NCBI GenBank assembly: GCA_964453825.1
Contig: CAYVPO010000001.1
Span: forward strand, 1 to 53,019
Length of the DNA: 53,019 bases
Origin: an uncultured Holophagales bacterium
GTDB lineage: Bacteria; Acidobacteriota; Thermoanaerobaculia; UBA5066
Direction of reading: 5' to 3'
The position numbers and the translations under genes were made by a program. Below the pieces are notes generated by a model, which did no database searches, had not been told where the DNA came from, and was given only the letters and a program-made list of their open reading frames with translations. Positions 7,946 through 49,116 of the stretch are shown in pieces. Position 1 is the stretch's first letter, and every line of letters starts with the position of its first letter.

Positions 7946-7954
7946 GATCCCGGC

Positions 7955-8955: not shown

Positions 8956-8970
8956 AATCCCCGCACACCG

Positions 8971-11545: not shown

Positions 11546-11622
11546 TGGTGGGCCCGGGGAGACTCGAACTCCCGACACGCGGTTTAGGAAACCGCTGCTC
11601 TATCCACCTGAGCTACGGGCCC
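11546..11622 (-). tRNA. tRNA-Arg(CCT): tRNA-Arg, anticodon CCT, CCA encoded
   Basis: The reverse complement reads GGGCCCGTAGCTCAGGTGGATAGAGCAGCGGTTTCCTAAACCGCGTGTCGGGAGTTCGAGTCTCCCCGGGCCCACCA. 7-bp acceptor stem, D arm GCTC/GAGC, anticodon stem GCGGT/ACCGC with loop TTCCTAA, T arm GGGAG-TTCGAGT-CTCCC, 77 nt. Confidence 0.93.
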
Positions 11623-32674: not shown

Positions 32675-33961
32675 TTGGACCGTTTCACCGGTTTGATCGG
32701 ACTCGCCGTCATCCTCCTCACCTGCTTCGCGCTCTCGCGGAACCGGAAGGCGATCCGCTGGGCGACGATCTTCTGGGGCGTCGTCCTGCAGTTCGCGCTC
32801 GGCTGGCTCGTCATCTCGTGGAAGGCCGGCGCCAGTGCCCTGAAGTCGTTCTCCGACGGGATCACCGGGGCGATCGCCTACTCGGACGAGGGGGCGAAGT
32901 TCGTCTTCGGCTGGCTCGCCGACCCGGCGATCGGCGGGGCGATCGGGGCGAAGACGGGGATCGACTTCTCTCCGTTCCTCTTCGCGTTCAAGGTGATGCC
33001 GATCGTCATCTTCATCGCGTCGTTCTTCACGATCCTCTACTACCTCGGCGTGATGCAGCGGATCGTCCAGGTCTTCGCGGTCGTGATGACGAAGCTGCTC
33101 CGCATCTCCGGGGCGGAGTCCCTCGCCGTCTCGGCGAACATCTTCATCGGGCAGACGGAGGCGCCGATCATCATCGCGCCGTACATCCCGAAGATGACGA
33201 ACTCCGAGCTCCTGACGATGATGACGGGCGGGATGGCGCACATTTCGGGCGCGGTCCTGCTCGCCTACGCGGCGATGGGGATCCCCGCGAGCTACCTCAT
33301 CACGGCCTCGGTGATGGCCGCTCCGGCGACGATCGTCATCGCGAAGCTGCTGCGCCCCGAGGTCGACACGCCGGAGACGTCGGGAGCCGTGAAGGTGAAG
33401 GTCGAGCACGAGCACGCGAACGTCATCGAGGCGGCCGCGGGCGGCGCCTCCCAGGGCGTCTCGCTCGCGATCAACATCGTCGGGATGCTGATCGCCTTCA
33501 TCGCGCTCGTGTCGCTCTTCAACGGCCTCCTCGGCTGGGTCGGGACCTACCTCGGCTTCCCGGCGCCGGGCCCCGGCGTCGACCCGGCGACGACGCTCTC
33601 GATCCAGTGGCTCTTCTCGAAGCTCCTCTGGCCGCTCGCCTGGGTCATGGGCGTCCCGGCGGCCGACTGCTCGAAGGTCGCGCGGCTGATCGGCTTCAAG
33701 ACGGTCATCAACGAGTTCGTGGCCTACGCGGAGATGACGAAGATCCCGCTCTCGGAGTGGACGGAGAAGGGGCGCCTGATCGCCTCGTTCGCGCTCTGCG
33801 GCTTCGCGAACTTCTCCTCGATCGGCATCCAGATCGGCGGCATCGGCGGCCTCGCCCCGTCCCGCAAGAGCGACATCGCCCGGCTCGGGCTCTGGGCGCT
33901 CCTCGGCGGCTCGCTCGCGACGTTCATGAGCGCGACGATCGCCGGAATCCTCCTCGGCTGA
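32675..33961 (+). CDS. nupC: NupC-family concentrative nucleoside transporter
   Basis: 428 aa and polytopic. IRWATIFWGVVLQFALG, EGAKFVFG, SANIFIGQTEAP, MTGGMAHISG and NEFVAY are characteristic CNT motifs. TTG start 5 nt after AGGAGG. Confidence 0.9.
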   Translation: MDRFTGLIGLAVILLTCFALSRNRKAIRWATIFWGVVLQFALGWLVISWKAGASALKSFSDGITGAIAYSDEGAKFVFGWLADPAIGGAIGAKTGIDFSPFLFAFKVMPIVIFIASFFTILYYLGVMQRIVQVFAVVMTKLLRISGAESLAVSANIFIGQTEAPIIIAPYIPKMTNSELLTMMTGGMAHISGAVLLAYAAMGIPASYLITASVMAAPATIVIAKLLRPEVDTPETSGAVKVKVEHEHANVIEAAAGGASQGVSLAINIVGMLIAFIALVSLFNGLLGWVGTYLGFPAPGPGVDPATTLSIQWLFSKLLWPLAWVMGVPAADCSKVARLIGFKTVINEFVAYAEMTKIPLSEWTEKGRLIASFALCGFANFSSIGIQIGGIGGLAPSRKSDIARLGLWALLGGSLATFMSATIAGILLG

Positions 33962-33977
33962 CGGAAGGAGACGACAG

Positions 33978-34910
33978 ATGGACGCTCGCTTCACGAAGAC
34001 CGTCGAGTTCCTCCGGGCGCGGATCCCCGTCCCGCCCGTCGTCGGCGTCATCCTCGGCTCGGGCCTCGGGGACTTCGCCGCCGCCGTCGAGGACCGGGTC
34101 GAGATCCCGTACGGGCAGATCCCCGGGTTTCCCTCCTCGGCCGTCGTGGGCCACGCGGGCACGCTCGTCGCCGGGACGCTGGCCGGAATCCCGATCGTCG
34201 TCCTCGCCGGACGGATCCACTACTACGAGGGGCATCCGATGTCGCTCGTCGTCACCCCGGCCCGGGTCCTGGGGCTCCTCGGCTGCCGCGACGTCGTCGT
34301 GACGAACGCCGCCGGGGGAATCGACACGCGCTTCTCGGCGGGCGACCTGATGCTCATCTCGGATCACATCAACCTCTTCGGGACGAACCCGCTGATCGGA
34401 CCCAACGAAGACTCGCTCGGGGCGCGCTTCCCCGACATGTCCGACGCCTATCGCGCCGACCTCCGGACGATGGCGAGGGCCGTCGCGCGGAAGATCCGCG
34501 TCCCGCTTCGGGAGGGGGTCTACGTCGGCGTCTCGGGGCCGTCCTACGAGACTCCTGCCGAGATCCGCGCCTTCCGGGCGCTCGGCGCGAGCGCCGTCGG
34601 GATGTCGACCGTCCCCGAGGTCATCGCCCTCGGCCACATGGGGGTCGGCGTCGTCGGCATCTCCTGCATCACGAACATGGCGGCCGGCGTCCTGAAGCAG
34701 CCGCTCCGCCACGACGAGGTCCTCGAGACGACGCGCCGCGTGAAGGACCGCTTCGTGCGGCTCCTCTCGGCGCTCGTCGAGGCGATGGGGAAGGGGCGCT
34801 CCTCCGACCGGCTCGTCGTCGAGCCGTCGAGGCGGGCGAAGCGACCGGCGCGCGAGGCGGCTTCGGGGCCGCGTCGGGGCGCGAAGCCGCCGGCGCGGCG
34901 GGGAAGGTAG
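33978..34910 (+). CDS. punA: Purine nucleoside phosphorylase (trimeric PNP family) with a basic C-terminal tail of about 40 aa
   Basis: GVILGSGLG, VVGHAGTLV, GRIHYYEG, VVTNAAGG, GPSYETPAEIR, GMSTVPE. Tail: GKGRSSDRLVVEPSRRAKRPAREAASGPRRGAKPPARRGR. Confidence 0.92.
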   Translation: MDARFTKTVEFLRARIPVPPVVGVILGSGLGDFAAAVEDRVEIPYGQIPGFPSSAVVGHAGTLVAGTLAGIPIVVLAGRIHYYEGHPMSLVVTPARVLGLLGCRDVVVTNAAGGIDTRFSAGDLMLISDHINLFGTNPLIGPNEDSLGARFPDMSDAYRADLRTMARAVARKIRVPLREGVYVGVSGPSYETPAEIRAFRALGASAVGMSTVPEVIALGHMGVGVVGISCITNMAAGVLKQPLRHDEVLETTRRVKDRFVRLLSALVEAMGKGRSSDRLVVEPSRRAKRPAREAASGPRRGAKPPARRGR

Positions 34911-34914
34911 CGGG

Positions 34915-35319
34915 ATGTCGGCGAAACCTCTCCCTCCGGCCGAGCGCGAGGCGCTCGTCGCCGCGGCGACCGCGGCGCGAGAGAACGCGGCGGCCCCCTA
35001 CTCGCGCTTCCACGTCGGGGCGGCCCTCCTCGCCGGGGACGGCCGGATCTTCGGGGGCTGCAACGTCGAGTCGGCGAGCTACGGCCTCACGTGCTGCGCG
35101 GAGCGGACGGCGGTCTTCAAGGCGATCTCGGAGGGCGTCCGCTCGTTCCGGGCCGTTGCCGTCGTGACGGGCGCCGACGAGCCGACCTCTCCCTGCGGGG
35201 CCTGCCGCCAGGTCCTCTGGGACCAGTGCCGGGACATCTCCGTCGTCATGGCGACGACGGGCGGGAAGCTGGAGGAGACGACGCTCGCGGCGCTCCTGCC
35301 GAGGGCGTTCGAGCTGTGA
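34915..35319 (+). CDS. cdd: Cytidine deaminase
   Basis: 134 aa. Zinc motifs CAERTA and PCGACRQ. YSRFHVGAALL. Confidence 0.92.
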   Translation: MSAKPLPPAEREALVAAATAARENAAAPYSRFHVGAALLAGDGRIFGGCNVESASYGLTCCAERTAVFKAISEGVRSFRAVAVVTGADEPTSPCGACRQVLWDQCRDISVVMATTGGKLEETTLAALLPRAFEL

Positions 35320-36740
35320 GGGGCGCGACCGTTCGGGCCGCGCTCGTCGCAGCGCTCCTTCTCGCGCTGCCGGCCGCCGGGGCGCCCGCCCCGAAGAAGG
35401 CCCCGTGCGACCTCGTCGTCGTCGCAGGTCACGCCCTCCCGATGGACGCGTCGTTCACCGTCCGCGGGGCGACGGCCGTCGCCGTCCGCGGCGGCGAGAT
35501 CCTCGCCGTCGGCGACCCCGCGGCGATCGACGCCGCGTGGGCGCCGAAGCAGCGGATCGAGAGGAAGGACGCGGTCCTCCTCCCGGGTCTCGTGAACACC
35601 CACGGTCACGCTGCGATGAACCTCCTGCGCGGCATCTCGAACGACCAGCCGCTCATGGAGTGGCTCACGAAGTACATCTTCCCGGCCGAGGCGAAGAACG
35701 TGTCGCCGGAGTTCGTGACGGCCGGGACGGAGCTCGCCTGCCTCGAGATGATCCGCGGCGGGACGACGACGTTCACCGACATGTACTACTACGAGTCCGA
35801 CGTGGCGGCCGCGGTCGACCGCGCCGGCCTCCGCGCGGTCCTCGGCGAGACGTGGATCGACTTTCCGGCCCCCGGACACGCGAACCTCGAGGAGTCGAAG
35901 ACGGTGACCCGGGCGTTCCTCGAGAGGTGGAAGGGGCATCCGCGGATCACGCCGGCCATCGCGCCGCACGCCCCCTACACGTGCAGCCGGGAGACGCTTC
36001 AGGCCGCGCGCTCTCTCGCCGACGAGTATGGAGTCCCGCTCCTGACGCACGTTTCCGAGACGTGGGACGAGCAGACGCAGATCCGCGAGAAGTACGGAAA
36101 GAGCCCGACGGAATGGCTCGACGAGGTCGGCTTCCTCGGGCCGCGCCTCTCGGTCGCGCACGGCGTCTGGCTCTCCGCCGAGGACCTGAAGGTCCTCGCC
36201 GCGCGTGGCGTCAGCCTTTCTCACAACCCGGAGTCGAACATGAAGCTCGGCTCGGGCATCGCCCCGATCGCGGCGGCCCGGAAGGCGGGCGTCGTCGTCG
36301 GCCTCGGGACCGACGGGTCGGCCGGGTCGAACAACGACCTCGACATGTTCGACACCATGGATTTCGCGGGGAAGCTCGCGAAGGTCGCGGCCCTCGACCC
36401 GACGCCGCTCACGGCGCCGGAGCTCCTCCGGATGGCGACGATCGACGGCGCGAAGGCCCTCGGCCTCGACCGCCTCGTCGGGTCGCTCGAGCCGGGGAAG
36501 AGAGCCGACCTGATCGTCGTGGACCTCGGGAAGGCCCACGTGGAGCCCGTATTCGACCTCCCCTCCACCGTCGTCTACGCCTCGCGCGCGGGCGACGTCT
36601 CGCTCACCGTCGTCGAAGGGAAGGTCCTCTGGGACGGGAAGCGGGTCACGACGCTCGACGAGGCGAGGGTCCTCGCGGCGGCGCGGGTCTGGCGAGAGAA
36701 GGTCCTGAAGTCGCTCGAGGGGAGCGCGGAGAAGAAATGA
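35316..36740 (+). CDS. Amidohydrolase-superfamily nucleobase/nucleoside deaminase (MTA/SAH- or guanine-deaminase-like) with an N-terminal signal-peptide-like segment
   Basis: LPGLVNTHGHAAMN (HxH), LTHVSET, AHGVWL, GLGTDGSAGSNNDLDM. The N-terminus VRGATVRAALVAALLLALPAAGAPAPKK looks like a Sec signal. GTG overlaps the cdd stop, and there is no later in-frame start before the first conserved strand. Confidence 0.85.
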   Translation: MRGATVRAALVAALLLALPAAGAPAPKKAPCDLVVVAGHALPMDASFTVRGATAVAVRGGEILAVGDPAAIDAAWAPKQRIERKDAVLLPGLVNTHGHAAMNLLRGISNDQPLMEWLTKYIFPAEAKNVSPEFVTAGTELACLEMIRGGTTTFTDMYYYESDVAAAVDRAGLRAVLGETWIDFPAPGHANLEESKTVTRAFLERWKGHPRITPAIAPHAPYTCSRETLQAARSLADEYGVPLLTHVSETWDEQTQIREKYGKSPTEWLDEVGFLGPRLSVAHGVWLSAEDLKVLAARGVSLSHNPESNMKLGSGIAPIAAARKAGVVVGLGTDGSAGSNNDLDMFDTMDFAGKLAKVAALDPTPLTAPELLRMATIDGAKALGLDRLVGSLEPGKRADLIVVDLGKAHVEPVFDLPSTVVYASRAGDVSLTVVEGKVLWDGKRVTTLDEARVLAAARVWREKVLKSLEGSAEKK

Positions 36741-38047
36741 GCCTCATCGTTCGGACGATCGTCAAGAAGCGCGACGGCGGCGAGCTGTCGGAAGGGGAGA
36801 TCCGGGACTTCGTCGCCGGAGTCACGGACCGCACCGTCACGGACGAGCAGGCGGCGGCGCTCCTGATGGCGATCTGCTGCCGCGGGATGACGACCGCCGA
36901 GACGGCGGCGCTCACGTTCGCCATGATGAGCTCGGGCGAAACGTGGGACCTTTCGCCCCACGGCTTCGTCGCCGACAAGCACTCGACGGGCGGCGTCGGC
37001 GACAAGTCGACTCTCGTCCTCGCTCCGCTCCTCGCGGCCTGCGGCGTGAAGACCGGGATGATGTCGGGGCGCGGCCTCGGCCACACCGGCGGCACGCTCG
37101 ACAAGCTCGAGGCGATCCCCGGCTTCGTGACCGGGCAGTCGAAGGAGGCGTTCGACCGGCTCGTCGAGACGGTCGGCTGCGCGCTCATCGCCGCGACGGA
37201 CACGGTCGCTCCGGCGGACCGGAGGCTCTACGCCCTCCGCGACGTGACGGGGACGGTCGAGTCGATCCCGCTCATCACGGCCTCGATCCTCTCCAAGAAG
37301 CTCGCGACGGGCGCGCACGCCGTCGTCTTCGACGTGAAGACGGGGAACGGCGCGTTCATGCAGAAGCCGGAGGACGCGCATACGCTGGGGCGCGCGCTCG
37401 TCGACACGACCCGCGCGACGGGCCGAAAGGCGAGCGGCTACGTCACGGCCATGGACCGCCCGGTCGGCGTGGCCGTCGGGAACGCGAACGAGGTCGAGGA
37501 GTCGATCCGCCTCCTCCGGGGCGACGGACCGGCCGACCTGCGCGAGAACGTCCTCCTGCTCGGCGCCGACCTGCTGGTGGCCGCGGGCGTCGCCGACTCG
37601 GAGAAGGAGGCGCGCCGTCGGCTGAACGCCGCGCTCCAGGACGGGACGGCCCTCGAGGCGTTCGCCCGCGTCATCTCGGCCCAGGGCGGGAACCCGGCCG
37701 TCTGCGACGACCTCGCGCTCCTCCCGCAGCCCGTCGCGAAGCACGAGGTGAAGGCCGCGGCCGCCGGGACGATCCGGCGCGTCGCGACGCGGGAGCTCGG
37801 GCTCCTCTCGATCGAGATCGGCTGTGGCCGCGCCCGGAAGGACGACGTCGTCGACCCCGCATCCGGCTACCGCGTCTTCCGGAAGACCGGGGAGGCCGTC
37901 TCGGCGGGGGACCCGCTCCTCGTCGTCGAGCTCGGGCCCAGGACGCAGCTCCCGAAGGACTACCTCGAGCGCGTCGCGGCCTGCTTCGAGGTCGGGGAGG
38001 CCGCCGGGGCCGAGCCGCCGCTGCCGTTCGTCGTCGAGAAGCTCTGA
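36737..38047 (+). CDS. deoA: Thymidine / pyrimidine-nucleoside phosphorylase
   Basis: IVKKRDGGELS, DKHSTGGVGDK, SGRGLGHTGGTLDKLE, LYALRDVT. The ATG overlaps the upstream TGA (ATGA). Confidence 0.92.
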   Translation: MSLIVRTIVKKRDGGELSEGEIRDFVAGVTDRTVTDEQAAALLMAICCRGMTTAETAALTFAMMSSGETWDLSPHGFVADKHSTGGVGDKSTLVLAPLLAACGVKTGMMSGRGLGHTGGTLDKLEAIPGFVTGQSKEAFDRLVETVGCALIAATDTVAPADRRLYALRDVTGTVESIPLITASILSKKLATGAHAVVFDVKTGNGAFMQKPEDAHTLGRALVDTTRATGRKASGYVTAMDRPVGVAVGNANEVEESIRLLRGDGPADLRENVLLLGADLLVAAGVADSEKEARRRLNAALQDGTALEAFARVISAQGGNPAVCDDLALLPQPVAKHEVKAAAAGTIRRVATRELGLLSIEIGCGRARKDDVVDPASGYRVFRKTGEAVSAGDPLLVVELGPRTQLPKDYLERVAACFEVGEAAGAEPPLPFVVEKL

Positions 38048-38059
38048 CCTCGGGTGCGG

Positions 38060-38102: not shown

Positions 38103-39101
38103 TCAGCCGGCGGACGGTGCCCGGTCGAGGCCGGGGAGCGTGTCGCCCCGTCGGATCTGCTGCTCGTCGACGCTCCCGGAGCGGGCCTCGCAGAAGTGCC
38201 GGAGGATGGTCCTCACGTTCGGCTGGCGCTCGGCGATCGATTCCAGGGCCGTGCGGTCCAGGGCCAGGAGCTCGCACGGCGTCGCAGCCGTGATCGTCGC
38301 GCTCCGGGGCTTCCCCGTGAGGATGGAGACCTCGCCGAAGAAGGCGCCCTCGTACATCTCGCGGACCTTGTGGTAGTGCCCGTCGGGGTCTTTCACGAAG
38401 GCCTTGACCGTTCCGGTCGTCAGGACGAAGAGCGAGTCGCCGGGCGCCCCTTCGGCGACGATGACGTCGCCCGCCTCGTAGGCCAGGAGCTCGAGGCCCT
38501 TGATCACCTCGACGAGCTCCTCGGCCGAGAAGTCGCTGAACAGCGGACTCGCGACCATCCCCTGCGCGGCGGCCTCGTCGACGGGGTGGAGGCTCCGGGG
38601 CGCCGTCTCGGACGCGTCCTCGACCGGGGCCTCGTCCGCGGTCTCGAAGTCGAGGACGAACGGCACGGTGGCGGCCGGCGCCGCGGACGGCGGCTCCGGC
38701 GACGGCGTCGGAGCCGCCTCCAGCTCGACGCGCCGGCGCATGGCGCCGGCGCGGACCCGGAGCGCGAGCGTCGACTCGTCGTCCTTCTGGCGCAGGAGAC
38801 GCGCGAGCTTCTCCTCGACCTTCGTGAGCGACGGGTCGATCCTCTGGACCTTCTTGAGCACGGCGATCGCCTTGCCGACGAACCCGGAGGTCGCGTAGTC
38901 GTCGGCGAGCTTCCAGAGGAGCTCGACGGCCTCGTAGGTCTTGCCGTCGAGCGCGAGGACGTCCCCGAGCTGCTGCTTCAGAGAGGCGTTCGAGGGGTCC
39001 TTTGCGACCTGGCCGCGGAGGACCTTCGCCGCGCGGCCGTAGTTGCGCTTGGCGATCAGCTCGGCGACGTCGTCAGAGCCGGAGAGCCACGAAAAGGCCA
39101 T
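38103..39101 (-). CDS. TPR-like N-terminal domain plus C-terminal cyclic-nucleotide-binding (CNB/CAP-effector) domain protein, no recognisable output domain
   Basis: N-terminal TPR-like helices (YGRAAKVLRGQVAKDPSNASLKQQLGDVLALDGKTYEAVELL...). An Ala/Pro/Glu linker. CNB: SPLFSDFSAEEL, GDVIVAEGAPGDSLFVLTTG, and the phosphate-binding cassette FFGEVSILTGKPRSATITA. Confidence 0.8.
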   Translation of the reverse strand: MAFSWLSGSDDVAELIAKRNYGRAAKVLRGQVAKDPSNASLKQQLGDVLALDGKTYEAVELLWKLADDYATSGFVGKAIAVLKKVQRIDPSLTKVEEKLARLLRQKDDESTLALRVRAGAMRRRVELEAAPTPSPEPPSAAPAATVPFVLDFETADEAPVEDASETAPRSLHPVDEAAAQGMVASPLFSDFSAEELVEVIKGLELLAYEAGDVIVAEGAPGDSLFVLTTGTVKAFVKDPDGHYHKVREMYEGAFFGEVSILTGKPRSATITAATPCELLALDRTALESIAERQPNVRTILRHFCEARSGSVDEQQIRRGDTLPGLDRAPSAG

Positions 39102-39183: not shown

Positions 39184-39552
39184 ATGGCGAAGATCCTGGT
39201 CGTCGACGACGACGAGATGAACCGAGACATGCTCTCGCGCCGCCTTCTCCGGAAGGGGTACGAGGTGGCGCTCGCCGTGAACGGGGCGGAAGCGATCGAG
39301 AAGGCCGTCTCGGAGAGGCCCGAGCTGATCCTGATGGACCTCTCGATGCCGGTCCTCGACGGCTACGAGGCGACCCGCCGGCTGAAGACGGAAGCGGCCA
39401 CCTCGAGCATCCCGATCATCGGCCTGTCGGCGCACGCGATGGTCGGAGACCGCGAGAAGGCGCTCTCGGCGGGCTGCGACGACTACGACACGAAGCCGGT
39501 CGAGCTGCCGCGGCTCCTCGGGAAGGTCGAGTCGTTCCTCGGGACCGGCTGA
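39184..39552 (+). CDS. Single-domain CheY-like response regulator
   Basis: MAKILVVDDDEMNR, LILMDLSMPVLDG, LSAHAM, DYDTKP. 122 aa. Confidence 0.9.
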   Translation: MAKILVVDDDEMNRDMLSRRLLRKGYEVALAVNGAEAIEKAVSERPELILMDLSMPVLDGYEATRRLKTEAATSSIPIIGLSAHAMVGDREKALSAGCDDYDTKPVELPRLLGKVESFLGTG

Positions 39553-39558
39553 GGGCGC

Positions 39559-41400
39559 TCAGCGCGTGCCGGAGAGGACCGTCTCGAGGAAGGAGCGGAT
39601 CTCCGGCGGGACCGACGTGAACCGGAGACCGAACCCCTTCGTCCCGGCCCGCGGCGAGAAGACCTTCCCGTAGAGCTCTCCCGGGATCGTCCGGCCGTCG
39701 TTCCCGACGAACCGGAGCCGGAGGTTGCGGAACGGGTCGGGCCTTTCGCGAGTCTCGACCTCCGCCTCCTTCATCGACAGCCGCACGAGGAGCCCTTCGG
39801 ACTCGGGGCCGTCGACGCGTTTCCCGGAGATCGTGGCGAACCGGACGGCGAGCGGTCCGTGGAGCGCGTGAAGGGGCTCGTCCCGGGCCGGCAGGAAGAG
39901 GTCGTACCCGCCCGCCACGCCCCGGACGTCCCACGCGGAGACCGGGTTCTCGAAGCCCTTCATCTGCACGACGACCTCGCTTCCGACCGAGAGCTGGCCC
40001 CCGCCCTCGCGCCGGGTCCGGTCGCTGACGAGGATCTGGCCGCCGACCGTGTACGACTCGATGCGCGCGGTCAGGTTCACGGGGCTGCCGACGACCCCGT
40101 ATTTCGCCCTCTTGTCCGAGCCGATGTTCCCGACGACGACCTCGCCGGTGTGGATCGCGATCCCCATCTCGACCTGGGGAAGCCCCTCGCGCCGGTTGAA
40201 CTCGTTCACGCGCCCCATCGCCTTCTGCATCTCGACGGCGCACGCCACGGCGCGGAGGGCGTCGTCCTCCCTCTGGACGGGCGCGCCGAAGATCGCCAGG
40301 ATCGCGTCGCCGATGAACTCGTCGATCGTCCCGTTGAACGAGAGGAGGAGGTCGGCCATCGTCCCGAGGTAGTTGTTCAGCAGTTTGACGACCCTGTCGG
40401 GGGGGATGCGGTCCGCGACCTGGGTGAAGCCGCGAAGGTCCGACATCAGGAGCGTGACCTTCCGTGTCTCCCCTCCGAGCTTCAGCCCCTCGGGCGTCTG
40501 GAGGAGCCGCTCGACGACCTCGTTCGAGAGGTAGCGGCCGAACGTCTCGAAGATGAAGCGGTTGCGCACCTCGAGGTCCTGCGCGAGCGTTCCGATCCGG
40601 GCCTTCGCCCGGGCCAGCGAGAGCTGCGTGCCGACCCGCGCGAGGACGACGGGGAAGTCGAGGGGCTTCGTCACGTAGTCGTTCGCGCCGAGGCGAAGCG
40701 CGGTGACGACGTCGTTCGAGTCGTCCCGGGCGGTGGCCATGATGACGGGAAGGTCCGCGGCGTCGTGCCGGAAGCGCAGGTCCCGAAGCACCTCGAGGCC
40801 GTTCATGCCGGGCATGACGACGTCCAGGAGGACGAGGTCGAAAGGGACCTCCTCGAGGAGGCGCAGCGCCTCCGGGCCGTTCTCCGCGACCGCGATCGTG
40901 AAGCCGTGGGCGCGGAGGCGCCGGGAGAGCATCTCCCGGTTCTCCGCGTTGTCGTCGACGACGAGGAGGTGCGCCGGCTCCACGGGGTCGCCGACCGGGA
41001 TCTCGACGTCGGCGCGCCGGATCGGCCCGGTCGGAGCGGGCACCTCGTCGGAAGGGCTCCGCGCGGCGTCCGGGGCGGGAAGGAGCAGCGGCGGCGCGGT
41101 CTCGACCTCGGTCCCGGCCTCGAGGGGGAGAAGCCTCTCCTGGAGCGTGTCGACCATCTCGAGGAGCCGGCGGGCCGCGTCCTGGATCTTCCCGAGGTCG
41201 GCGGCGCATCCCGTCTGACCAGTGGCGATGGCGTCTTCCTCCACCATCTCCGCGTAGCCGAGGATCTGGTGGATCGGGGTCCGCATGTCGTGGCGGAGCT
41301 TCGAGAGGAGCTGGGGCGGCACGGCGCGGTTCCCCGCGGCGAGCCGCGGCGCCTCCTCCGCCTCCGCGAACGCCTTTTCGAGCAGGTCCTCGTCCGCCAT
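39559..41400 (-). CDS. Multidomain signalling protein: orphan HisKA phospho-acceptor helix, receiver domain, class III nucleotidyl cyclase, and an uncharacterised C-terminal domain of about 110 aa
   Basis: H-box LSKLRHDMRTPIHQILGY (His37) with no HATPase_c. REC: LLVVDDN, LVLLDVVMPG (Asp193), YVTKP. Cyclase: VTLLMSDLRGFT (Asp321), IDEFIGDAILAIFGAP (Glu361, Asp365), KYGVVGSPVNLTARIES (Gly435, Asn442, Arg446). Tail aa 505-613 is unassigned. Confidence 0.88.
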   Translation of the reverse strand: MADEDLLEKAFAEAEEAPRLAAGNRAVPPQLLSKLRHDMRTPIHQILGYAEMVEEDAIATGQTGCAADLGKIQDAARRLLEMVDTLQERLLPLEAGTEVETAPPLLLPAPDAARSPSDEVPAPTGPIRRADVEIPVGDPVEPAHLLVVDDNAENREMLSRRLRAHGFTIAVAENGPEALRLLEEVPFDLVLLDVVMPGMNGLEVLRDLRFRHDAADLPVIMATARDDSNDVVTALRLGANDYVTKPLDFPVVLARVGTQLSLARAKARIGTLAQDLEVRNRFIFETFGRYLSNEVVERLLQTPEGLKLGGETRKVTLLMSDLRGFTQVADRIPPDRVVKLLNNYLGTMADLLLSFNGTIDEFIGDAILAIFGAPVQREDDALRAVACAVEMQKAMGRVNEFNRREGLPQVEMGIAIHTGEVVVGNIGSDKRAKYGVVGSPVNLTARIESYTVGGQILVSDRTRREGGGQLSVGSEVVVQMKGFENPVSAWDVRGVAGGYDLFLPARDEPLHALHGPLAVRFATISGKRVDGPESEGLLVRLSMKEAEVETRERPDPFRNLRLRFVGNDGRTIPGELYGKVFSPRAGTKGFGLRFTSVPPEIRSFLETVLSGTR

Positions 41401-41488
41401 CGAGCGCCGAGTGTAGCGCCGCCCGACGGCCGGCTCCGGGACGCGGCGATATACTTCGTGGCACGGAAAGCGAGGAGCCGGGAGCGCC

Positions 41489-42385
41489 GTGAACGAGCTT
41501 TACCAGGAGCTGCTGCCGCTCGGTCGGGACGGGGTCGTCCCTGCCGGAGACGAGCTCTGGCAGGAAGGAGCGAAAGGCGACACCGTCGTCCTCCTCGTCG
41601 AGGGGACGTTCGAGGTCCTCCAGTCGTCTCCCTCCGGCGAGCCGATCGTCCTGCGTCTCGCGCGCGCCGGCGACGTCCTCGGCGAGATGGCCTGCCTCGA
41701 CGGCGGGGCCCGCTCGGCCGGGCTCCGGGCCGCGACGGACTGCCGCATCCGGACGATCCCGGCGGCCGAGTTCCGGGACTTCATCCGGCTCCGGCCGCAC
41801 CTCATGGAGGAGCTCTTCCGGATCGAGTCGCAGAGGATCCGGAGCCTCTCCCGGATGGTCTCGCAGAGCCAGCACCGCGCCATCACGGACCGGCTCACCT
41901 CGCTCTACAACTACGGCTTCTTCATCGAACGCCTCGATCTCGAGCTCGAGCGCGCCGTGCAGATGCGCGACGCCGTCAGCGTCGTCCTCTTCGACATCGA
42001 CCATTTCAAGGCCTACAACGACGCGCAGGGGCACCCGGCGGGGAACGTCGTCCTCGTGCAGGTCTCCGACCTCCTGCGAAGGACGGCGCGACGGGGCGAC
42101 ATCGTCGCGCGCTTCGGCGGCGAGGAGTTCGTGATCCTCCTGTACGGCGCCTCGAAGCGCGAGGCGCTTCAGGTGGCCGAGGCCGCCCGCGCCCGCGTCG
42201 AGGCGACGGCGTTCGCAGGGGAGGAGACCCAACCGTTGGGGCGCGTGACGATCAGCGGCGGAGTGGCCTGCTTCCCGTCGGACGCGCGCAGCGCGACCGA
42301 CCTCCTGAAGGCGGCCGACGTCCGGCTTTACAAGGCGAAGGGCGCCGGCCGGAACCGCGTCGAGGCCGGCGGCGACACGCCGTAG
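41489..42385 (+). CDS. Cyclic-nucleotide-binding domain fused to an active-looking GGDEF diguanylate cyclase
   Basis: CNB: GDELWQEGAKGDTVVLLVEG, with the cassette LGEMACLDGGARSAGLRA. GGDEF: DRLTSLYNY, LFDIDHFKAYND, RRGDIVARFGGEEFVILL (RxxD I-site five residues before GGEEF), LYKAKGAGRNR. GTG start, 88 nt from the divergent cyclase start. Confidence 0.88.
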   Translation: MNELYQELLPLGRDGVVPAGDELWQEGAKGDTVVLLVEGTFEVLQSSPSGEPIVLRLARAGDVLGEMACLDGGARSAGLRAATDCRIRTIPAAEFRDFIRLRPHLMEELFRIESQRIRSLSRMVSQSQHRAITDRLTSLYNYGFFIERLDLELERAVQMRDAVSVVLFDIDHFKAYNDAQGHPAGNVVLVQVSDLLRRTARRGDIVARFGGEEFVILLYGASKREALQVAEAARARVEATAFAGEETQPLGRVTISGGVACFPSDARSATDLLKAADVRLYKAKGAGRNRVEAGGDTP

Positions 42386-42439
42386 CGGAGCCGCGGCGCT
42401 CTCCTAACGCACGCGGGACGCGGAGGTTATCCTCCGCCC

Positions 42440-44383
42440 GTGCTCTACCGGCTCGAGCGCGTCCACAAGTCCTTCGGGACGAAGAGCGTCCTCTCGGGCG
42501 CGACCTGGCAGCACGACCCCGGGCGGGTCGTCGGCCTCGTCGGGCGGAACGGGGCCGGGAAGTCGACCCTCCTCCGGATCGTCCAGGGGCAGGTCGAACC
42601 CGACGGGGGGCGGGTCCTCCTCGCGGGCGGAACGACGTTTGCGTCCCTCGAGCAGGCCGTCGAGCCGGAGGGGGACGAGCCGCTCCGGGACTTCGTCGCC
42701 CGGGCGCAGGAGGGGCTGCGCGGGCTCGAAGCGGAGATGCGCCGCCTCGAGGAGGCGATCGCGGCGGCGTCGGCCTCCGGCACCGGCGAGGCGGTCGAGC
42801 CGCTCCTGGTCGAGCACGACGCGATCCGCGAGCGCTTCGAGCGGAACGGCGGCTACGAGGCCGACGCGCGCGTCGAGCGCGTCCTCCTCGGGGTCGGCCT
42901 CCCGCGGGAGACGTGGAGGAGGCCCGTCGGGGAGCTTTCCGGGGGCCAGAAGCACCGGGCGCAGATCGCGCGCCTCCTTCTCGGCGAGGCCTCCGTCCTC
43001 CTCCTCGACGAGCCGACGAACCACCTCGACCTCGCCGGCCTCGAGTTCCTCGAGACGTGGCTCGTCGAGCGGAAGGCCGCGGCCGCGCAGGCGGCCCTCG
43101 TCGTCTCCCACGACCGCCGCTTCCTGAACGCCGTCGCCGACCGGATCGTGGAGGTCGCGAACGGCCTCCTCGAGGAGTACCCGGGCGACTACGAGGCCTA
43201 CCGCAGGCTGAAGGCGGAGCGGGACCGGGTCCGGGCGAAGGCGGCCGAGGAGCAGAGGAAGCTCGTCGAGCGGACGGAAGACTTCATCCGTCGGAACATC
43301 GCGGGGCAGAAGACGAAGCAGGCCCAGGCGAGGCGGAAGATGCTCGCGAAGCTCGAGCGCGTGGAGGCGCCGCGCGAGGACGCGAACGAGGTGACGTTCC
43401 GGTTCGAGGAGGCGCGCGCCTCCGGGGACCGCGTCCTCGAGCTGAAGGGGCTCGTCCCGGGCTACGCCGAGACCGGCCCGCTCCTTTCTCCCGTCTCGTT
43501 CCTTCTCCGGCGCGGGGAGCGGATCGCCCTCTGGGGGCCGAACGGCTGCGGCAAGACGACGCTCCTGAAGACGATCGCGCGCCTTCTCCCGCCGCTCGGA
43601 GGGAGCGCCGTCCCGGGGACCGGGGTGATCGTGGGCTACTACGACCAGGAGATGCGAGACCTCCCCTCCTCGTGGACGGTCCTCGACGTCGTCCGCGAGC
43701 TCGACCCGACGCTCCTCGACGGGGAGGCGCGCGACTTCCTCGCGCTCTTCGACTTCCGGGGCGACGAGGTGGAGCAGCGGGTCGCGACCCTCTCCGGGGG
43801 CGAAAAAGGGCGGCTCTCGCTCGCGCGGATCGTCTTCGGCGGGGCGAACCTCCTCCTCCTCGACGAGCCGACGAACCACCTCGACCTCGACTCGCGCGAG
43901 CGGCTCGAGGAGGCGCTCCTCGACTTCGAGGGGACGATCGTCTTCGTGTCGCACGACCGCTGGTTCGTCGACCGGATCGCGACCCACGTCCTCGAGGTGA
44001 AGGATCGACAGGCGGCGCTCTGGCCGGGGAGCTGGTCCGACCTCGTGAGGCGGCGGGCGGCCGAGAAGGCCGCCGCCGGGGAGACGGTCACGGTCTCGGC
44101 CGGCGTTCCGCCGGAACGTCTCCCGGCCCGGCGACCCGACCGCCAGGCGGAGCGGCAGCGGGCCAAGGCCCGGCGCGAGGTCGAGGCGCTCGAGGAGGAG
44201 GTCGCGCGGCTGGAGGAGCGGGTCCGCGAGATCGACGCGGCGCTCGCCGACCCGGCCGTCTGGAAGGACGGGCCGCGGACCCGCGAGCTGACGATCGCCC
44301 GGGACGACGCGCGGCGGGCGGTCGACGAGAGGTACGCGGCCTGGGAGGGTGCGGTGAAGAAGCTCGAAGAGGTGCCCGCGTGA
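42440..44383 (+). CDS. ABC-F family ATPase (Uup-like, two NBDs plus a C-terminal coiled coil)
   Basis: GRNGAGKSTLL, LSGGQKHRAQIARLL, LLLDEPTNHLD, second GPNGCGKTTLL, LSGGEKGRLSLA, LLLDEPTNHLD. No membrane domain. Charged helical tail. Confidence 0.9.
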   Translation: MLYRLERVHKSFGTKSVLSGATWQHDPGRVVGLVGRNGAGKSTLLRIVQGQVEPDGGRVLLAGGTTFASLEQAVEPEGDEPLRDFVARAQEGLRGLEAEMRRLEEAIAAASASGTGEAVEPLLVEHDAIRERFERNGGYEADARVERVLLGVGLPRETWRRPVGELSGGQKHRAQIARLLLGEASVLLLDEPTNHLDLAGLEFLETWLVERKAAAAQAALVVSHDRRFLNAVADRIVEVANGLLEEYPGDYEAYRRLKAERDRVRAKAAEEQRKLVERTEDFIRRNIAGQKTKQAQARRKMLAKLERVEAPREDANEVTFRFEEARASGDRVLELKGLVPGYAETGPLLSPVSFLLRRGERIALWGPNGCGKTTLLKTIARLLPPLGGSAVPGTGVIVGYYDQEMRDLPSSWTVLDVVRELDPTLLDGEARDFLALFDFRGDEVEQRVATLSGGEKGRLSLARIVFGGANLLLLDEPTNHLDLDSRERLEEALLDFEGTIVFVSHDRWFVDRIATHVLEVKDRQAALWPGSWSDLVRRRAAEKAAAGETVTVSAGVPPERLPARRPDRQAERQRAKARREVEALEEEVARLEERVREIDAALADPAVWKDGPRTRELTIARDDARRAVDERYAAWEGAVKKLEEVPA

Positions 44384-45636
44384 CGGAAACGGCCTCGATC
44401 CTGGCGGTCGGAAGCGAGCTCCTCGGCACGACTCGGCTCGACACGAACTCGCTCTTCCTGACCGGGGAGCTCGAGGCGATCGGCGTGCGCGTCGTCCGCA
44501 AGGCGTGCGTCGTCGACGGGTGGGAGGACCTCCTCGCCGAGCTGCGGTTCGCCCTCGAGCGTTCGCAGCTCCTCGTCGTGACGGGAGGCCTCGGACCGAC
44601 CGAGGACGACCGGTCGAAGGAGGCGGTGGCGCACCTCCTCGGGCGCCGGCTCGTGCGCGACGACGCGATCCTCGAGAGCCTGATGGAGCGGTTCCGGAAG
44701 CGCGGCTTCGAGATGCCCGCGGTGAACGCGAAGCAGGCCGACGTGATCGAGGGGGCGTTCGTCCTCTCGAACAGGCGGGGAACGGCGCCCGGCTACGTCG
44801 TGGAGGACGCGGGACGAACGATCGTCCTCCTGCCGGGCGTCCCCCACGAGATGAAGGCGCTCTTCGTCGAGGCGGTCGTGCCGCGCCTGACGGGCGGGGC
44901 GCCGCGGAAGGGGCTCCACCGTCGCGTGCTGAAAGTGGCCGGCCTCGGTGAAAGCTCGGTCGAGCAGCTCGTGAAGCCGGTCTACGAGGCCCACCGGGAG
45001 CACGACGTCACGATCCTCGCCGCGGCGCCGGGGGAGGTCCAGCTCCACTTCGCCGCGCGCGGCGGCCGCGAGGAGGCGGGGCGGACGCTGGACGCTCTCG
45101 AGGCCGCGTTCCGCGCCGCGCTCGGAGGGGCCCTCTTCGGCCGGGACGACGAGACGCTCGAAGGCGTCGTCGGCCGCCTGCTGCGCGAGGCCGGGCGAAC
45201 GCTCGCCCTCGCCGAGTCGTGCACCGGAGGGATGATCGCCACGCGCCTCACGGACGTCGCGGGGGCGTCGGACGCCTTCCCGGGGGGCGTCGTCGCCTAT
45301 GCGAACGAGGCGAAGGTGGAGCTCCTGGGCGTCTCGCCGGAGTCGATCGCGCGCTTCGGGGCCGTCTCGGAGCAGGTCGCCCGGGAGATGGCCGCGGGAG
45401 CGAGACGCCGCTTCGGCGCCTCGGCGGGGCTCGCGGTCACGGGTGTCGCCGGCCCCGCGGGAGGGACTCCCGAGAAGCCGGTCGGGACGGTCCACCTCGC
45501 GCTCGACGCGGAAGCAGGTAGCCGGCACGAACGGCTGACGCTCGTAGGGGATCGCGCGATGATCCGGCGCTGGACGACCTCGGCGGCGCTCGGGATGGTC
45601 CGGGCCTGGCTGAACGAAGGAGAGGGGACGAAGTGA
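44380..45636 (+). CDS. cinA: CinA: MoCF-like domain plus nicotinamide-nucleotide amidase (PncC) domain
   Basis: ILAVGSELLGTTRLDTNS, VVTGGLGPTEDD, LLPGVPHEM, LALAESCTGGMIA, GGVVAYANEAK, GVAGPAGGT. GTG overlaps the ABC-F stop. Confidence 0.9.
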   Translation: MTETASILAVGSELLGTTRLDTNSLFLTGELEAIGVRVVRKACVVDGWEDLLAELRFALERSQLLVVTGGLGPTEDDRSKEAVAHLLGRRLVRDDAILESLMERFRKRGFEMPAVNAKQADVIEGAFVLSNRRGTAPGYVVEDAGRTIVLLPGVPHEMKALFVEAVVPRLTGGAPRKGLHRRVLKVAGLGESSVEQLVKPVYEAHREHDVTILAAAPGEVQLHFAARGGREEAGRTLDALEAAFRAALGGALFGRDDETLEGVVGRLLREAGRTLALAESCTGGMIATRLTDVAGASDAFPGGVVAYANEAKVELLGVSPESIARFGAVSEQVAREMAAGARRRFGASAGLAVTGVAGPAGGTPEKPVGTVHLALDAEAGSRHERLTLVGDRAMIRRWTTSAALGMVRAWLNEGEGTK

Positions 45637-46693: not shown

Positions 46694-47599
46694 GTGGCCG
46701 TCCTCGACATGAACCACGGCTTCCCGAACCTCGGGCACGCCTCGGTCGTCGAGCGCCTCGAGCGGATCGGCGGGGAAGAGCGGGAACGGCTCGGGGGAGC
46801 CGCGCCCGAGGTCCGCGTCGTCTCGTACGACGTCCGGCGCGGCCTCGCGGTCCCGTCGAGCGCGGCCCGCTTCCCGCTCGTCGTCGGGACGGGAGGGCCG
46901 GGCGCCCTGGACCCGCGCGAGAACGACGGCGTCTCGCCGCTCGCGCAGGGGATCGCGGAGGACCCGGCCTGGGAGGCGCCGCTCTGGCGCTACTTCGACG
47001 CCCTCCTCGCGCGGGGAGGCAGCGCGCTCTTCGGGATCTGCCACACGTTCGGCCTCCTGGCCCGATGGTCCGGCTTCGGGGAGGCCGTGGCGCGGGGTCC
47101 GGCGAAGGGGAAGAGCTCGGGAGCGGTTCCGAACCGCCTCACGAAGGAGGCCGAGACGCACCCCTGGTTCGGCGGCTATTACCGGACGGGTCCCGACGGG
47201 AGGGTCCGCGTCCTCGACAGCCGGCTCTTCGACATCCTCCCGTCGGGACGCGGGCCGGGCACGATCCTGGCCTGGGAGGCGGACGAAGCCGGCGAACGCG
47301 GCGAGGCGGTGACGATGGTCGAGCTGGACCGTTTCCCGGACGGGTCGCCCCGGATCTGGGCCGTGAACCACCACCCCGAGATCGGCGGGGCGGCGGATCA
47401 GAGAGAACGCTTGCTGCGCCTCGCCTCCGAACGGGAGGTCGGCCCCGGGTGGCTCGAGGAGCGCCTGCGGGCGCTGGACGCCTTCGACGTTTCGGTCGAG
47501 ACCGAAAGGGGCCTCCGTGCGACGAGGGCGTTCACGTTCGAGGAGCCGGTCCGAGCCGTCCTCGCCCGGGCGCTCGCGGAGCGGTCCGCGGCGGCCTGA
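46694..47599 (+). CDS. Class I glutamine amidotransferase-like protein; start codon uncertain
   Basis: Nucleophile elbow LFGICHTFGLL and a His/Glu pair in AVNHHPE. The frame is open from 46631 (CTG overlapping the gpsA stop). The first canonical start is GTG at 46694 (VAVLDMNHG). Confidence 0.65.
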   Translation: MAVLDMNHGFPNLGHASVVERLERIGGEERERLGGAAPEVRVVSYDVRRGLAVPSSAARFPLVVGTGGPGALDPRENDGVSPLAQGIAEDPAWEAPLWRYFDALLARGGSALFGICHTFGLLARWSGFGEAVARGPAKGKSSGAVPNRLTKEAETHPWFGGYYRTGPDGRVRVLDSRLFDILPSGRGPGTILAWEADEAGERGEAVTMVELDRFPDGSPRIWAVNHHPEIGGAADQRERLLRLASEREVGPGWLEERLRALDAFDVSVETERGLRATRAFTFEEPVRAVLARALAERSAAA

Positions 47600-47605
47600 G
47601 CGGGC

Positions 47606-47917
47606 TCAGACGGTGCCGTGGAGGTCGCAGTGGTCGCCGTGGAGGTGATGCAGAGCGCCGTCGACGAGGTAGTCGAGGTGGTCCCCGTGCGGGACGAGCG
47701 GATGCCCGCAGCCGGCGTGGTGCCGGGCAGGGCACTCGACGGGGGCGCAGGCCGCCGGGCGCCCGTGGTCGACGGCGAGGACGTGCTCGGCCACGCCCGA
47801 GTCCGCGGGAGAGTGGAGGTGTCCGTCGTGGAGATAATCGGCGTGGTCGCCATGGCGAATCGCCCGATGTCCGCAGCCCGGCCCGTGCTCGTGGGGATGC
47901 CCGTCCCTGTGGTCCAA
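47606..47917 (-). CDS. Small His/Cys-rich putative metal-binding protein with two copies of a GCGH-x4-HGDH-x-DYL-x-DG-x-LH module
   Basis: TTG start 9 nt after GAGGAGGG, giving 103 aa. Translation MDHRDGHPHEHGPGCGHRAIRHGDHADYLHDGHLH...RHHAGCGHPLVPHGDHLDYLVDGALHHLHGDHCDLHGTV has 22 His and 5 Cys by my count. Divergent from znuA. The longer ORF to 48109 overlaps the znuA start and is Arg/Pro junk. Confidence 0.6.
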   Translation of the reverse strand: MDHRDGHPHEHGPGCGHRAIRHGDHADYLHDGHLHSPADSGVAEHVLAVDHGRPAACAPVECPARHHAGCGHPLVPHGDHLDYLVDGALHHLHGDHCDLHGTV

Positions 47918-47988
47918 GTCCTTTCGCCCTCCTCGGGCGGGAGCATCGGTCCGGGAGCCGGCCGCGGTCAAGCTGGAGCGCAGAGTCG

Positions 47989-49116
47989 ATGAGAGGGTCG
48001 CGCCTTCACCTGGCGCTCTCACTGGCCCTTTCCGCGGCAGCGGCGGGTTGCGCGCCCTCGGCGCCGCGTCCCGCGCCGGGTCCGCGGATCGCGGTCGCCA
48101 CGATCGCACCGCTTGCCGATCTCGTCCGGCGAGTCGCCGGGCCCGAGTGGACCGTGCGAAGCGTGATTCCGCCGGGGACGTCGCCGCACGTCTTCGAGCC
48201 CGAGCCGTCGGACCTTCGGAAGCTCCTGGGGGCGCAGGCGGTCTTCGTGGCGGGGGCGGGCTACGACGACTGGATGCGAAAGGTCCTCTCGGCCTGCGCC
48301 TCGCGCGCGCCGGTCCACGACGCGGCGAAGTCGCTCGGGATCGGACCGGGGCACGTGTGGGAGGAGGGGGCCGGTCGCCATGCTCCGGCAGAGGAGCGCG
48401 ACGCGCACGGAGAGGAGGCGCACGAGAGCGCCGCCGGATCTCACGAGGAGGACGATCACGCGGGACACGATCACGACGCCTCCGGCCACGAGGGCCGCTC
48501 TCACGAGGGCGAAGCCCACGGGCCCGAGCCGGGAGGCGAGCCGGCAGGCGGGGGAGGCGCTCACGACGGGCACGCCCACGGCGTCCTCGGCGAAGACCCG
48601 CACTGGTGGCTCTCGCCCGAGCTGGCGGCCCTCAGCCTCGCCGGAATTGCAGAGGCGTTTGCCGCCATCGACCCGATCCACGCCGAGGCGTACCGGGCGC
48701 GGGCTCGGGAGGCCGCTGCGGAGCTCGCCGAGCTCGATCGGGAGATCGCGGCCCGGCTCGCCCCGGTCCGCGGTCGGCGGTTCGTCTCCGCGCACCGGGC
48801 CTGGGTCTACTTCGCCGACCGCTACGGTCTCGTCGAAGCGGCGTCGATCGAGCCCGTGCCGGGACGGGAGCCCTCGCCTCGCGAGCTGAAGGCGCTCGTC
48901 TCGGAAGGCCGGCGCGGCGGCCTCGGTCGGCTCTTCACCGAGCCGCAGTTCCCGCCGGCGGCCGCGCGGGTCGTGGCGGACGAGGCGGGCCTCGACCTGA
49001 CGCTCGTCGACCCGATCGGAGGAGTCCACGGCCGGGCGACGTATCCTGAGCTGATGCGCTTCAATGCCGACGCGTTCCTCAGGGGGCTCTCCGGCGCGGC
49101 GGAGAGACGGCCGTGA
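47989..49116 (+). CDS. znuA: Zinc ABC transporter substrate-binding lipoprotein (ZnuA/TroA family) with a long His/Asp/Glu-rich loop
   Basis: Signal plus lipobox LSLALSAAAAGC. IAPLADLV, PPGTSPHVFEP, DPHWWLSP, EPQFPP. His-rich loop HAPAEERDAHGEEAHESAAGSHEEDDHAGHDHDASGHEGRSHEGEAHG...AHDGHAHG. Confidence 0.88.
   Translation: MRGSRLHLALSLALSAAAAGCAPSAPRPAPGPRIAVATIAPLADLVRRVAGPEWTVRSVIPPGTSPHVFEPEPSDLRKLLGAQAVFVAGAGYDDWMRKVLSACASRAPVHDAAKSLGIGPGHVWEEGAGRHAPAEERDAHGEEAHESAAGSHEEDDHAGHDHDASGHEGRSHEGEAHGPEPGGEPAGGGGAHDGHAHGVLGEDPHWWLSPELAALSLAGIAEAFAAIDPIHAEAYRARAREAAAELAELDREIAARLAPVRGRRFVSAHRAWVYFADRYGLVEAASIEPVPGREPSPRELKALVSEGRRGGLGRLFTEPQFPPAAARVVADEAGLDLTLVDPIGGVHGRATYPELMRFNADAFLRGLSGAAERRP

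Follow-up and report, generated by a model that had tools for sequence, protein, structure and literature searches.

A Cya2-like class III cyclase, probably GTP-using, in a cluster with a receiver and two cyclic-nucleotide-binding proteins in an uncultured Holophagales bacterium

Introduction

To our knowledge few bacterial guanylate cyclases have been characterised, namely Cya2, the Gcy enzymes of R. centenum and XC_0250, and as far as we know Cya2 is the one bacterial guanylate cyclase whose structure has been solved. Here we describe a stretch of 53,019 nucleotides from an uncultured Holophagales bacterium of the Acidobacteriota (assembly GCA_964453825.1, contig CAYVPO010000001.1, positions 1 to 53,019; the window hereafter), which carries on its minus strand a gene for a class III nucleotide cyclase of 613 amino acids (aa). 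We propose that this protein is probably a guanylate cyclase of the Cya2 family, and we compare it, together with its neighbours, to the systems described so far.

Cya2 of Synechocystis prefers GTP and its base-specifying pair is formed by E488 and G562, the Glu being assisted by what has been called a supporting Lys (PMC6005667). The substitution E488K turns the enzyme into an adenylate cyclase, and a transducer motif, -FGRY-, is known from Cya2 as well as from further class III cyclases (PMC5995499). The protein ends in a C-terminal extension of 118 aa, "structurally uncharacterized" and important for stimulating activity, and truncated cores lacking this extension show very low activity (PMC5995499). 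No receptor for cyclic GMP (cGMP) is known for Cya2 (PMC10187061). A Cya2-like subgroup of bacterial guanylate cyclases had already been proposed by Rauch et al., as relayed in PMC6005667. In Xanthomonas campestris, XC_0249 binds cGMP with a dissociation constant of 0.29 uM, compared with 17.9 uM for cyclic AMP (cAMP), and cGMP boosts its diguanylate cyclase activity (PMC3770947). Hardly any signalling biochemistry is known from the phylum Acidobacteriota, and our literature search on cGMP in Acidobacteria found no paper.

Results

The cyclase core is closest to Cya2

When the cyclase was compared with the sequences in the PDB using phmmer, the two top matches were Synechocystis Cya2 (2W01, E 1.4e-67) and the phytochrome-Cya2 fusion 6FHT. 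The alignment to 2W01 extends over 201 residues without a gap, with 55.7% identity and a constant offset of 127. An AlphaFold2 (AF2) model of the cyclase, built on 64 homologues, was superimposed on 2W01 by Foldseek with a template-modelling score (TM, normalised to 2W01) of 0.96, a root-mean-square deviation of 1.0-1.4 A and 56% identity, and the core fits many class III cyclases with TM values of 0.85-0.96. Cya2 is thus the nearest solved structure both by sequence and by fold. In addition, the domain matches Pfam PF00211 above the cutoff (E 3.1e-23), and Pfam divides the whole protein into HisKA (aa 30-86), Response_reg (aa 146-255) and Guanylate_cyc PF00211 (aa 312-482). The gene and the elements of its catalytic part are the following.

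39559-41400, minus strand: cyclase gene, 613 aa, HisKA-REC-cyclase-PilZ-like (open reading frame list and Pfam; stop codon at 39559-39561)
39916-40470, minus strand: class III cyclase core, aa 311-495 (PF00211, Cya2 alignment and Foldseek)
40318-40320, minus strand: Glu361, corresponding to Cya2 Glu488 as the first base-specifying residue; Lys in adenylate cyclases (alignment)
40096-40104, minus strand: Lys433-Tyr434-Gly435, where Gly435 corresponds to Cya2 Gly562 as the second base-specifying residue (alignment)
40066-40068, minus strand: Ala445, where Cya2 has Tyr572 (NLTARIES here, NLTYRIES in Cya2)
40531-40542, minus strand: cyclase transducer element FGRY, aa 287-290, ending the REC-to-cyclase helix 249-287 (sequence and invariance)

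All eight catalytic residues of Cya2 tabulated in PMC6005667 are kept in this protein: D448, R450, E488, D492, G562, N569, R573 and K608 of Cya2 correspond to D321, R323, E361, D365, G435, N442, R446 and K481, respectively. An initial annotation of this DNA, made from its letters, had singled out Glu361 (gag at 40320-40318, within NGTIDEFIGDAILAI, NGTIDEFIGDA) and Gly435 (ggg at 40098-40096, within DKRAKYGVVGSPVNLTARIESY, KYGVVGSPVNLTARIES) as the base-specifying residues and had considered the metal-binding D321/D365 and the transition-state residues N442/R446 intact. Both codons were borne out by reading the minus strand and by the translation of the open reading frame, and the four catalytic residues were found in the indexed translation. 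The same annotation had named Cya2 as a Glu/Gly enzyme, as PMC4215837 and PMC6005667 confirm, and had asked for a structure-based comparison with Cya2; in the gapless alignment and in the AF2 superposition E361 falls on E488 and G435 on G562, as it had predicted. The fusion 6FHT shows Lys in the E488 column (gtidKfmgd), that is, the engineered E488K. The Lys two residues ahead of the Gly (K433, in KYG) aligns with the KYG of Cya2, and we infer that K433 is likely the supporting Lys mentioned for the Cya2-type pocket.

The pocket signature is invariant in the family and widespread beyond it

Homologues of the cyclase extend along 100% of its 613-aa length, and its orthologues, 89-94% identical, are found in contigs of metagenome-assembled genomes (MAGs) labelled Thermoanaerobaculia, Holophagales or Acidobacteriota. 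In an alignment of 64 cyclase homologues reaching down to 50% identity (A1), E361, K433, Y434 and G435 are invariant, as are the metal-binding D321 and D365, the transition-state residues N442 and R446, the phosphate-binding R323 and K481 and the four residues of the transducer element (F287, G288, R289 and Y290). Among the 120 best homologues, pattern matching recovered the E/G pair in 112; the other eight are mostly failures of the regular expression. The possibility that the pair represents recent drift or a sequencing artefact was rejected, given its invariance throughout the family.

Related loci swap the pocket as a set, having either E361/K433/G435 (the E/K/G signature) or K/D/T, the adenylate-cyclase type with the charges at 361 and 433 exchanged. 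One of these loci, L051, contains two HisKA-REC-cyclase paralogues of the same architecture side by side, one with E/K/G and the other with K/D, which argues that the two signatures may mark different products; the pair looks like a natural combination of a putative adenylate and a putative guanylate cyclase in one locus. The two genes are located at 7838-9421 (minus strand) and 6001-7824 (plus strand), and the E/K/G member has a PilZ-like tail that the K/D member lacks. A third signature, R/D/G (Arg at 361, Asp at 433, Gly at 435), appears in L020-L023, which are MAGs of Burkholderiales/Gammaproteobacteria with cyclases of about 34% identity.

When the catalytic domain was searched exhaustively with HMMER against representatives of clusters at 50% identity, 9073 of them matched at E<=1e-30. 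The best 149 of these 9073 show 47-97% identity, have lengths of 195 to 1850 aa and nearly all read E...K-x-G/A/S. As far as the sequences tell, the E/K/G signature is therefore widespread, and the gene described here is one more member of a large, recognised family. The CHASE2 and transmembrane sensor of Cya2 is not present in our protein, and N-terminal lengths vary widely among the best Cya2-like representatives, so the sensor does not define the Cya2-like subgroup.

A PilZ-fold domain follows the cyclase core

The cyclase core is followed by one more domain.

39565-39870, minus strand: PilZ-fold beta-barrel and helix, aa 511-612 (AF2 model and Foldseek)

Within the last 113 aa Pfam gave no match, even with the threshold relaxed to E<=10. 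Modelled alone by AF2, this domain reached a mean confidence score (pLDDT) of 88, and approximately the top 30 Foldseek matches in the PDB are all PilZ proteins (Alg44, 4XRN, MapZ, VCA0042, YcgR, BcsA) with a probability of 1.0. In an alignment of the domain (A2), the canonical RxxxR and D/NxSxxG motifs for binding cyclic di-GMP (c-di-GMP) are not conserved; there is a single semi-conserved Arg ahead of strand 1, and LSMKEA stands at the position of DxSxxG. A bona fide c-di-GMP-binding PilZ domain was rejected on account of these absent motifs. The domain has instead conserved motifs of its own (EGK, LSxKxA, GDLYAKV and RFTSxPPE), and Y577, K579, F594 and T595 are invariant.

The profile of this domain was found in 138 of the 149 best Cya2-like representatives, including 11 of the 12 that have the Cya2-type Tyr (EKGY). 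Among the loci that we fetched, all 23 E/K/G entries have it (L001-L019, L024 and L050-L052), and none of the entries with K/D/T or R/D/G, nor the K/D paralogue, does. The PilZ-fold domain appears, on sequence grounds, to define the Cya2 clade, and it is probably the counterpart of the Cya2 extension (residues 639-756).

The N-terminal part combines a HisKA hairpin with a receiver

The cyclase is preceded by two domains of two-component type.

41143-41316, minus strand: HisKA/DHp hairpin, aa 29-86, H-box RHDMRTP, His37 codon at 41290-41292 (Pfam E 2.4e-8)
40636-40971, minus strand: REC domain, aa 144-255, phospho-acceptor Asp193 codon at 40822-40824 (Pfam Response_reg E 1.9e-29)

In the AF2 model the hairpin is formed by helices 29-59 and 63-84 and is followed by a disordered Pro/Ala-rich stretch (92-140) where an ATPase would sit. 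As Pfam finds no HATPase_c match after HisKA and residues 92-140 are predicted to be disordered, the protein is not a kinase and could at most be a phosphotransferase. R36 and H37 are near-invariant in A1, and T41 and P42 are invariant, as are D149, D150, D193, T223 and K245 of the receiver. A long helix (249-287) runs in the model from the receiver into FGRY, with low confidence for residues 276-309.

Neighbouring genes and related loci

Three further genes of the window complete the cluster.

41489-42385, plus strand: cNMP-binding and GGDEF protein, 298 aa, 88 bp from the cyclase start and divergent from it (Pfam)
39184-39552, plus strand: single-domain response regulator, 122 aa, convergent with the cyclase (Pfam Response_reg E 1.1e-26)
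38103-39101, minus strand: TPR and cNMP-binding protein, 332 aa, divergent from the single-domain regulator (Pfam cNMP_binding E 5.6e-23, and TPR)

The cNMP-GGDEF protein matches Pfam cNMP_binding (E 6.9e-19) and GGDEF (E 2.9e-42), as well as the NCBIfam GGDEF model above its cutoff, and its GGEEF motif, RxxD I-site (RRGD) and phosphate-binding cassette (GEM...RSA) are all intact. The TPR-cNMP protein has the phosphate-binding cassette FGEVSILTGKPRSA. An Arg-Ser-Ala cassette fits either cAMP or cGMP. We dropped the PDB matches of the cNMP domains as a means of telling cAMP from cGMP selectivity, since they are not diagnostic; 4KG1 (XC_0249) is not among the 60 PDB matches listed for the cNMP domain, and an NE diad of the Asn145/Glu146 type is not evident in the C-helix region of the cNMP neighbour.

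The arrangement, including the adjacency of the cNMP-GGDEF gene, is kept in all 14 distinct orthologous contigs that reach far enough, and the module is kept as well where 2-3 kb have been inserted within it (L003, L011-L014 and L016). The flanking genes (ABC-F, CinA, GPDH and thymidine phosphorylase) are equally conserved in position on the same contigs, and because these are unrelated genes the synteny by itself argues only weakly for a functional link.

Three further loci are not syntenic or are more distant. In L051 an orthologue of the TPR-cNMP protein (38% identity) lies 15 bp upstream of the E/K/G cyclase, together with a single REC (68%) and a CHASE8 hybrid kinase. In L052 a PAS hybrid kinase is followed by a single REC (70% identity) and then by the E/K/G cyclase, with overlapping stop and start codons, and in L004 a CHASE8-HAMP hybrid kinase is found beside the REC. 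Hybrid kinase, single REC and cyclase are thus adjacent or overlapping in the three loci, which, as judged from gene content, support the link within the cluster independently; by analogy, the hybrid kinases suggest a phosphorelay. The single REC is 68-70% identical in L051 (9418-9801) and L052 (5627-6004), where the accompanying cyclase is only 53% identical, and REC domains 57-69% identical to it form part of larger proteins in loci of cyanobacteria and proteobacteria (L020-L023, L031-L037, L042, L045 and L046). In loci of Vicinamibacteria type a Lactamase_B_2 gene (PF12706) overlaps the cyclase start by 4 bp (L005 4093-5004, L006 4099-5004, L050 5102-6004), and the same domain is fused to the cyclase N-terminus in P0070, P0078, P0084, P0090 and P0120; this partner may be a cyclic-nucleotide phosphodiesterase.

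Other genes of the window

A pyrimidine/nucleoside salvage block at about 33900-38050 adjoins the cluster and is syntenic in relatives (L001 9356-13845); it comprises thymidine phosphorylase, an amidohydrolase, cytidine deaminase, a PNP/UDP phosphorylase and a nucleoside transporter. Some 30 kb away, a REC and EAL protein of 553 aa (8971-10632, plus strand) is a candidate response-regulator phosphodiesterase for c-di-GMP. ZnuA-like and ABC-3 metal-uptake genes (47065-50575, plus strand) and a VLCAD/ACAD9-like acyl-CoA dehydrogenase gene (26466-28256, plus strand) are ordinary housekeeping genes. When Rfam was run over the whole window, a tRNA gene at 11549-11622 (minus strand) was the sole match at the gathering threshold, and no riboswitch was found near the cyclase cluster. 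Spurious long open reading frames, the longest of 1925 aa and all with much Arg, Pro, Gly and Ala, lie across real genes in other frames and on other strands, for instance at 39859-45636 (plus strand) and 39416-42232 (minus strand); such overlong frames are typical of a genome of about 70% G+C, where the length of an open reading frame is alone no evidence of a gene.

Discussion

We consider it reasonably probable that this locus encodes a Cya2-family class III cyclase that converts GTP to 3',5'-cGMP, is controlled by a phosphorelay and is read by the products of its neighbours. The initial annotation, which had spoken of a possible guanylate cyclase with an active-looking domain, remains the best reading, since the protein matches Cya2 and has the complete catalytic set, within the limits set by Ala445 and by a signature that is widespread. 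Judged from its sequence, the enzyme is with moderate confidence a predominantly GTP-using one.

According to this proposal, a hybrid histidine kinase encoded elsewhere would phosphorylate the stand-alone REC, from which the phosphate would pass to His37 of the Spo0B-like DHp hairpin, also the putative dimerisation module, and then to Asp193 of the receiver. Phosphorylation of Asp193 would be signalled through the helix 249-287 and FGRY to the catalytic dimer, with the PilZ-like domain assisting. As in Cya2, two subunits would pair head to tail and create two active sites, in which Glu361, held by Lys433, would hydrogen-bond N1 and N2 of guanine and Gly435 would give the base room. The cGMP produced would bind to the TPR-cNMP protein and to the cNMP-GGDEF enzyme, and the latter would raise c-di-GMP, as in XC_0250/XC_0249 of Xanthomonas. 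If cGMP is indeed made, the cluster would be a compact circuit in which a phosphorelay feeds a guanylate cyclase whose product has two candidate receptors, one of them a GGDEF diguanylate cyclase.

Several observations weigh against this proposal, and they concern the cluster, the substrate and the C-terminal domain in turn. As regards the cluster, a search of the window with the hybrid kinase of L004 matched only REC and HisKA segments and revealed no HATPase or histidine kinase gene. Furthermore, the adjacency of the cNMP-GGDEF gene is confined to one syntenic clade, this gene not being beside the cyclase in L005, L006 and L050-L052. It is possible, although we would not call it probable, that the enzyme is a guanylate cyclase and the cluster no pathway, the cNMP-GGDEF and TPR-cNMP genes being neighbours by inherited synteny and serving another cyclase or another ligand. 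The equally fixed position of ABC-F, CinA, GPDH and thymidine phosphorylase is what this explanation would expect, and the four genes of the cluster are separately oriented and hence form no single operon. It speaks against this explanation that L051, which is not syntenic, again has the TPR-cNMP orthologue immediately upstream of an E/K/G cyclase, that the single REC recurs in both L051 and L052, and that the module outlasts the insertions of 2-3 kb; moreover, there is a precedent in Xanthomonas for pairing a guanylate cyclase gene with a cNMP-GGDEF gene (PMC3770947).

As regards the substrate, the position of Cya2 Tyr572, the sole known determinant of specificity or activity of Cya2 that is not kept, is occupied by Ala445. 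According to PMC4215837, which cites Rauch 2008 on this point, the Tyr strongly raises the guanylate cyclase activity of Cya2 and leaves its adenylate cyclase activity unaffected, and the Tyr acts together with the Gly in steric selection (PMC6005667, PMC4215837). In the literature covered, which did not extend to Rauch 2008 and Ryu 2015 themselves, we found no biochemically characterised member with Ala, Ser or Gly at this position. The closest comparison is Ma1120 (KDA to EGY; PMC4215837; PDB 5D0G), whose K101E/D157G mutant has the same E/G/A set as our protein. That mutant was the best guanylate cyclase of the double mutants and still preferred ATP by about 6.6-fold (kcat/Km 1.92 versus 0.29 x10^6), and the added Tyr equalised ATP and GTP (PMC4215837). 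As Ma1120 E/G/A still prefers ATP and the Tyr is Ala here, the E/G pair alone does not show specificity, and a GTP preference is likely but, given Ala445, not certain.

An adenylate or dual-specificity cyclase, in which the E/K/G pocket without the Tyr admits ATP, cAMP is made in amounts equal to those of cGMP or larger and the neighbours are cAMP receptors, is for these reasons worth weighing, and we regard it as unlikely. The cNMP domains of the neighbours do match the cAMP-binding CAP/CRP best in the PDB, with weaker matches to PKG, and the cyclase homologues are publicly labelled "class 3 adenylate cyclase", which is an automatic annotation. Nevertheless, Ma1120 is an engineered, ATP-preferring mycobacterial adenylate cyclase with about 24-26% identity to our protein and without the Asn, so that its behaviour is weighed lightly, whereas the protein described here shares 56% identity with an enzyme that naturally prefers GTP. 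In that enzyme a single change of Glu to Lys is enough to make an adenylate cyclase, and the Glu is invariant here. The K/D and E/K/G paralogues of L051 would be redundant if both made cAMP. Finally, Ser, Ala and Gly are the majority state of the clade at the Tyr position: among 120 close homologues we counted 48 Ala, 36 Gly, 27 Ser and no Tyr, and among the best 149 of the 9073 representatives the order is Ser, Ala, Gly and then Tyr (n=12).

As regards the C-terminal domain, its assignment to the PilZ fold rests on a predicted structure and on TM values that are only moderate (0.55-0.69). That the cyclase is weak or silent in vivo, or uses another nucleotide, and that the protein acts mainly as a phosphorelay scaffold or through contacts of the PilZ-like domain, is highly improbable: the HisKA-only module and this domain could function apart from catalysis, and truncated Cya2 cores are very weak without their extension (PMC5995499), but the two metal-binding Asp residues, Arg323, Asn442, Arg446 and Lys481 are invariant down to 50% identity, which therefore indicates purifying selection on catalysis. 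Within the proposed cGMP pathway, it is a conjecture to which we give little credence that the PilZ-fold domain senses c-di-GMP or cGMP at a non-canonical site (GDLYAKV, RFTS), which would close a loop from cGMP through c-di-GMP back to the cyclase, gated by a built-in phosphorelay of Spo0F/Spo0B type.

There are many Cya2-like E/K/G cyclases, the majority without the Tyr of Cya2 and almost all with the PilZ-fold C-terminal domain. A member of the Ala or Ser type bears on whether thousands of genes annotated as adenylate cyclases are in fact guanylate cyclases. The main interest of this locus lies in a possible circuit from cGMP to c-di-GMP in an unstudied phylum and in a PilZ-fold domain that seemingly defines the Cya2 clade.

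Comparison with known systems

With Cya2 the protein shares a core that is 55.7% identical without gaps, the fold, the Glu/Gly pair and the Lys, both metal-binding Asp residues, the Arg/Asn/Arg/Lys set and FGRY, and also an extension of about 105-118 aa after the core, whose domain is found in Cya2-type EKGY representatives too. The two differ in that Cya2 (sll0646 of Synechocystis PCC 6803) has Tyr572 in place of Ala445 and an extracellular CHASE2 domain with transmembrane segments, whereas the protein of this uncultured Thermoanaerobaculia/Holophagales acidobacterium is soluble and has a HisKA-only module and a REC domain. The extension of the protein described here resembles the PilZ receptors of PF07238 (Alg44, MapZ, YcgR, BcsA) in its predicted six-stranded beta-barrel and C-terminal helix, and it departs from them in having no Pfam match, no c-di-GMP motifs and another conserved surface (GDLYAKV, RFTS).

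As for the input, a receiver that controls a nucleotide cyclase dimer by way of a helical linker is known from PleD and WspR (REC-GGDEF), with the difference that the output here is a class III cyclase and not a GGDEF domain. The relays of the Spo0F-Spo0B-Spo0A type likewise have an ATPase-less DHp-type four-helix module, and the stand-alone REC kept here suggests a His-Asp-His-Asp transfer like theirs; unlike in those relays, the putative phosphotransferase is fused to the final response regulator.

Finally, XC_0250 is an atypical cyclase, with Leu/Ala for the Asn/Arg pair and Ala at the specificity position, and by this description it differs from the canonical Cya2-like enzyme encoded here; the guanine-binding diad of XC_0249 (Asn145/Glu146) was not identified in the neighbour. 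Nonetheless, in both organisms a class III cyclase gene adjoins a gene for a cNMP protein with an active-looking GGDEF domain (PMC3770947), TPR repeats are present in the system (on the cyclase in Xanthomonas, on the separate cNMP protein here) and the proposed logic leads from cGMP to the synthesis of c-di-GMP. By analogy, then, the resemblance to XC_0250/XC_0249 is one of circuit logic and not of family membership.

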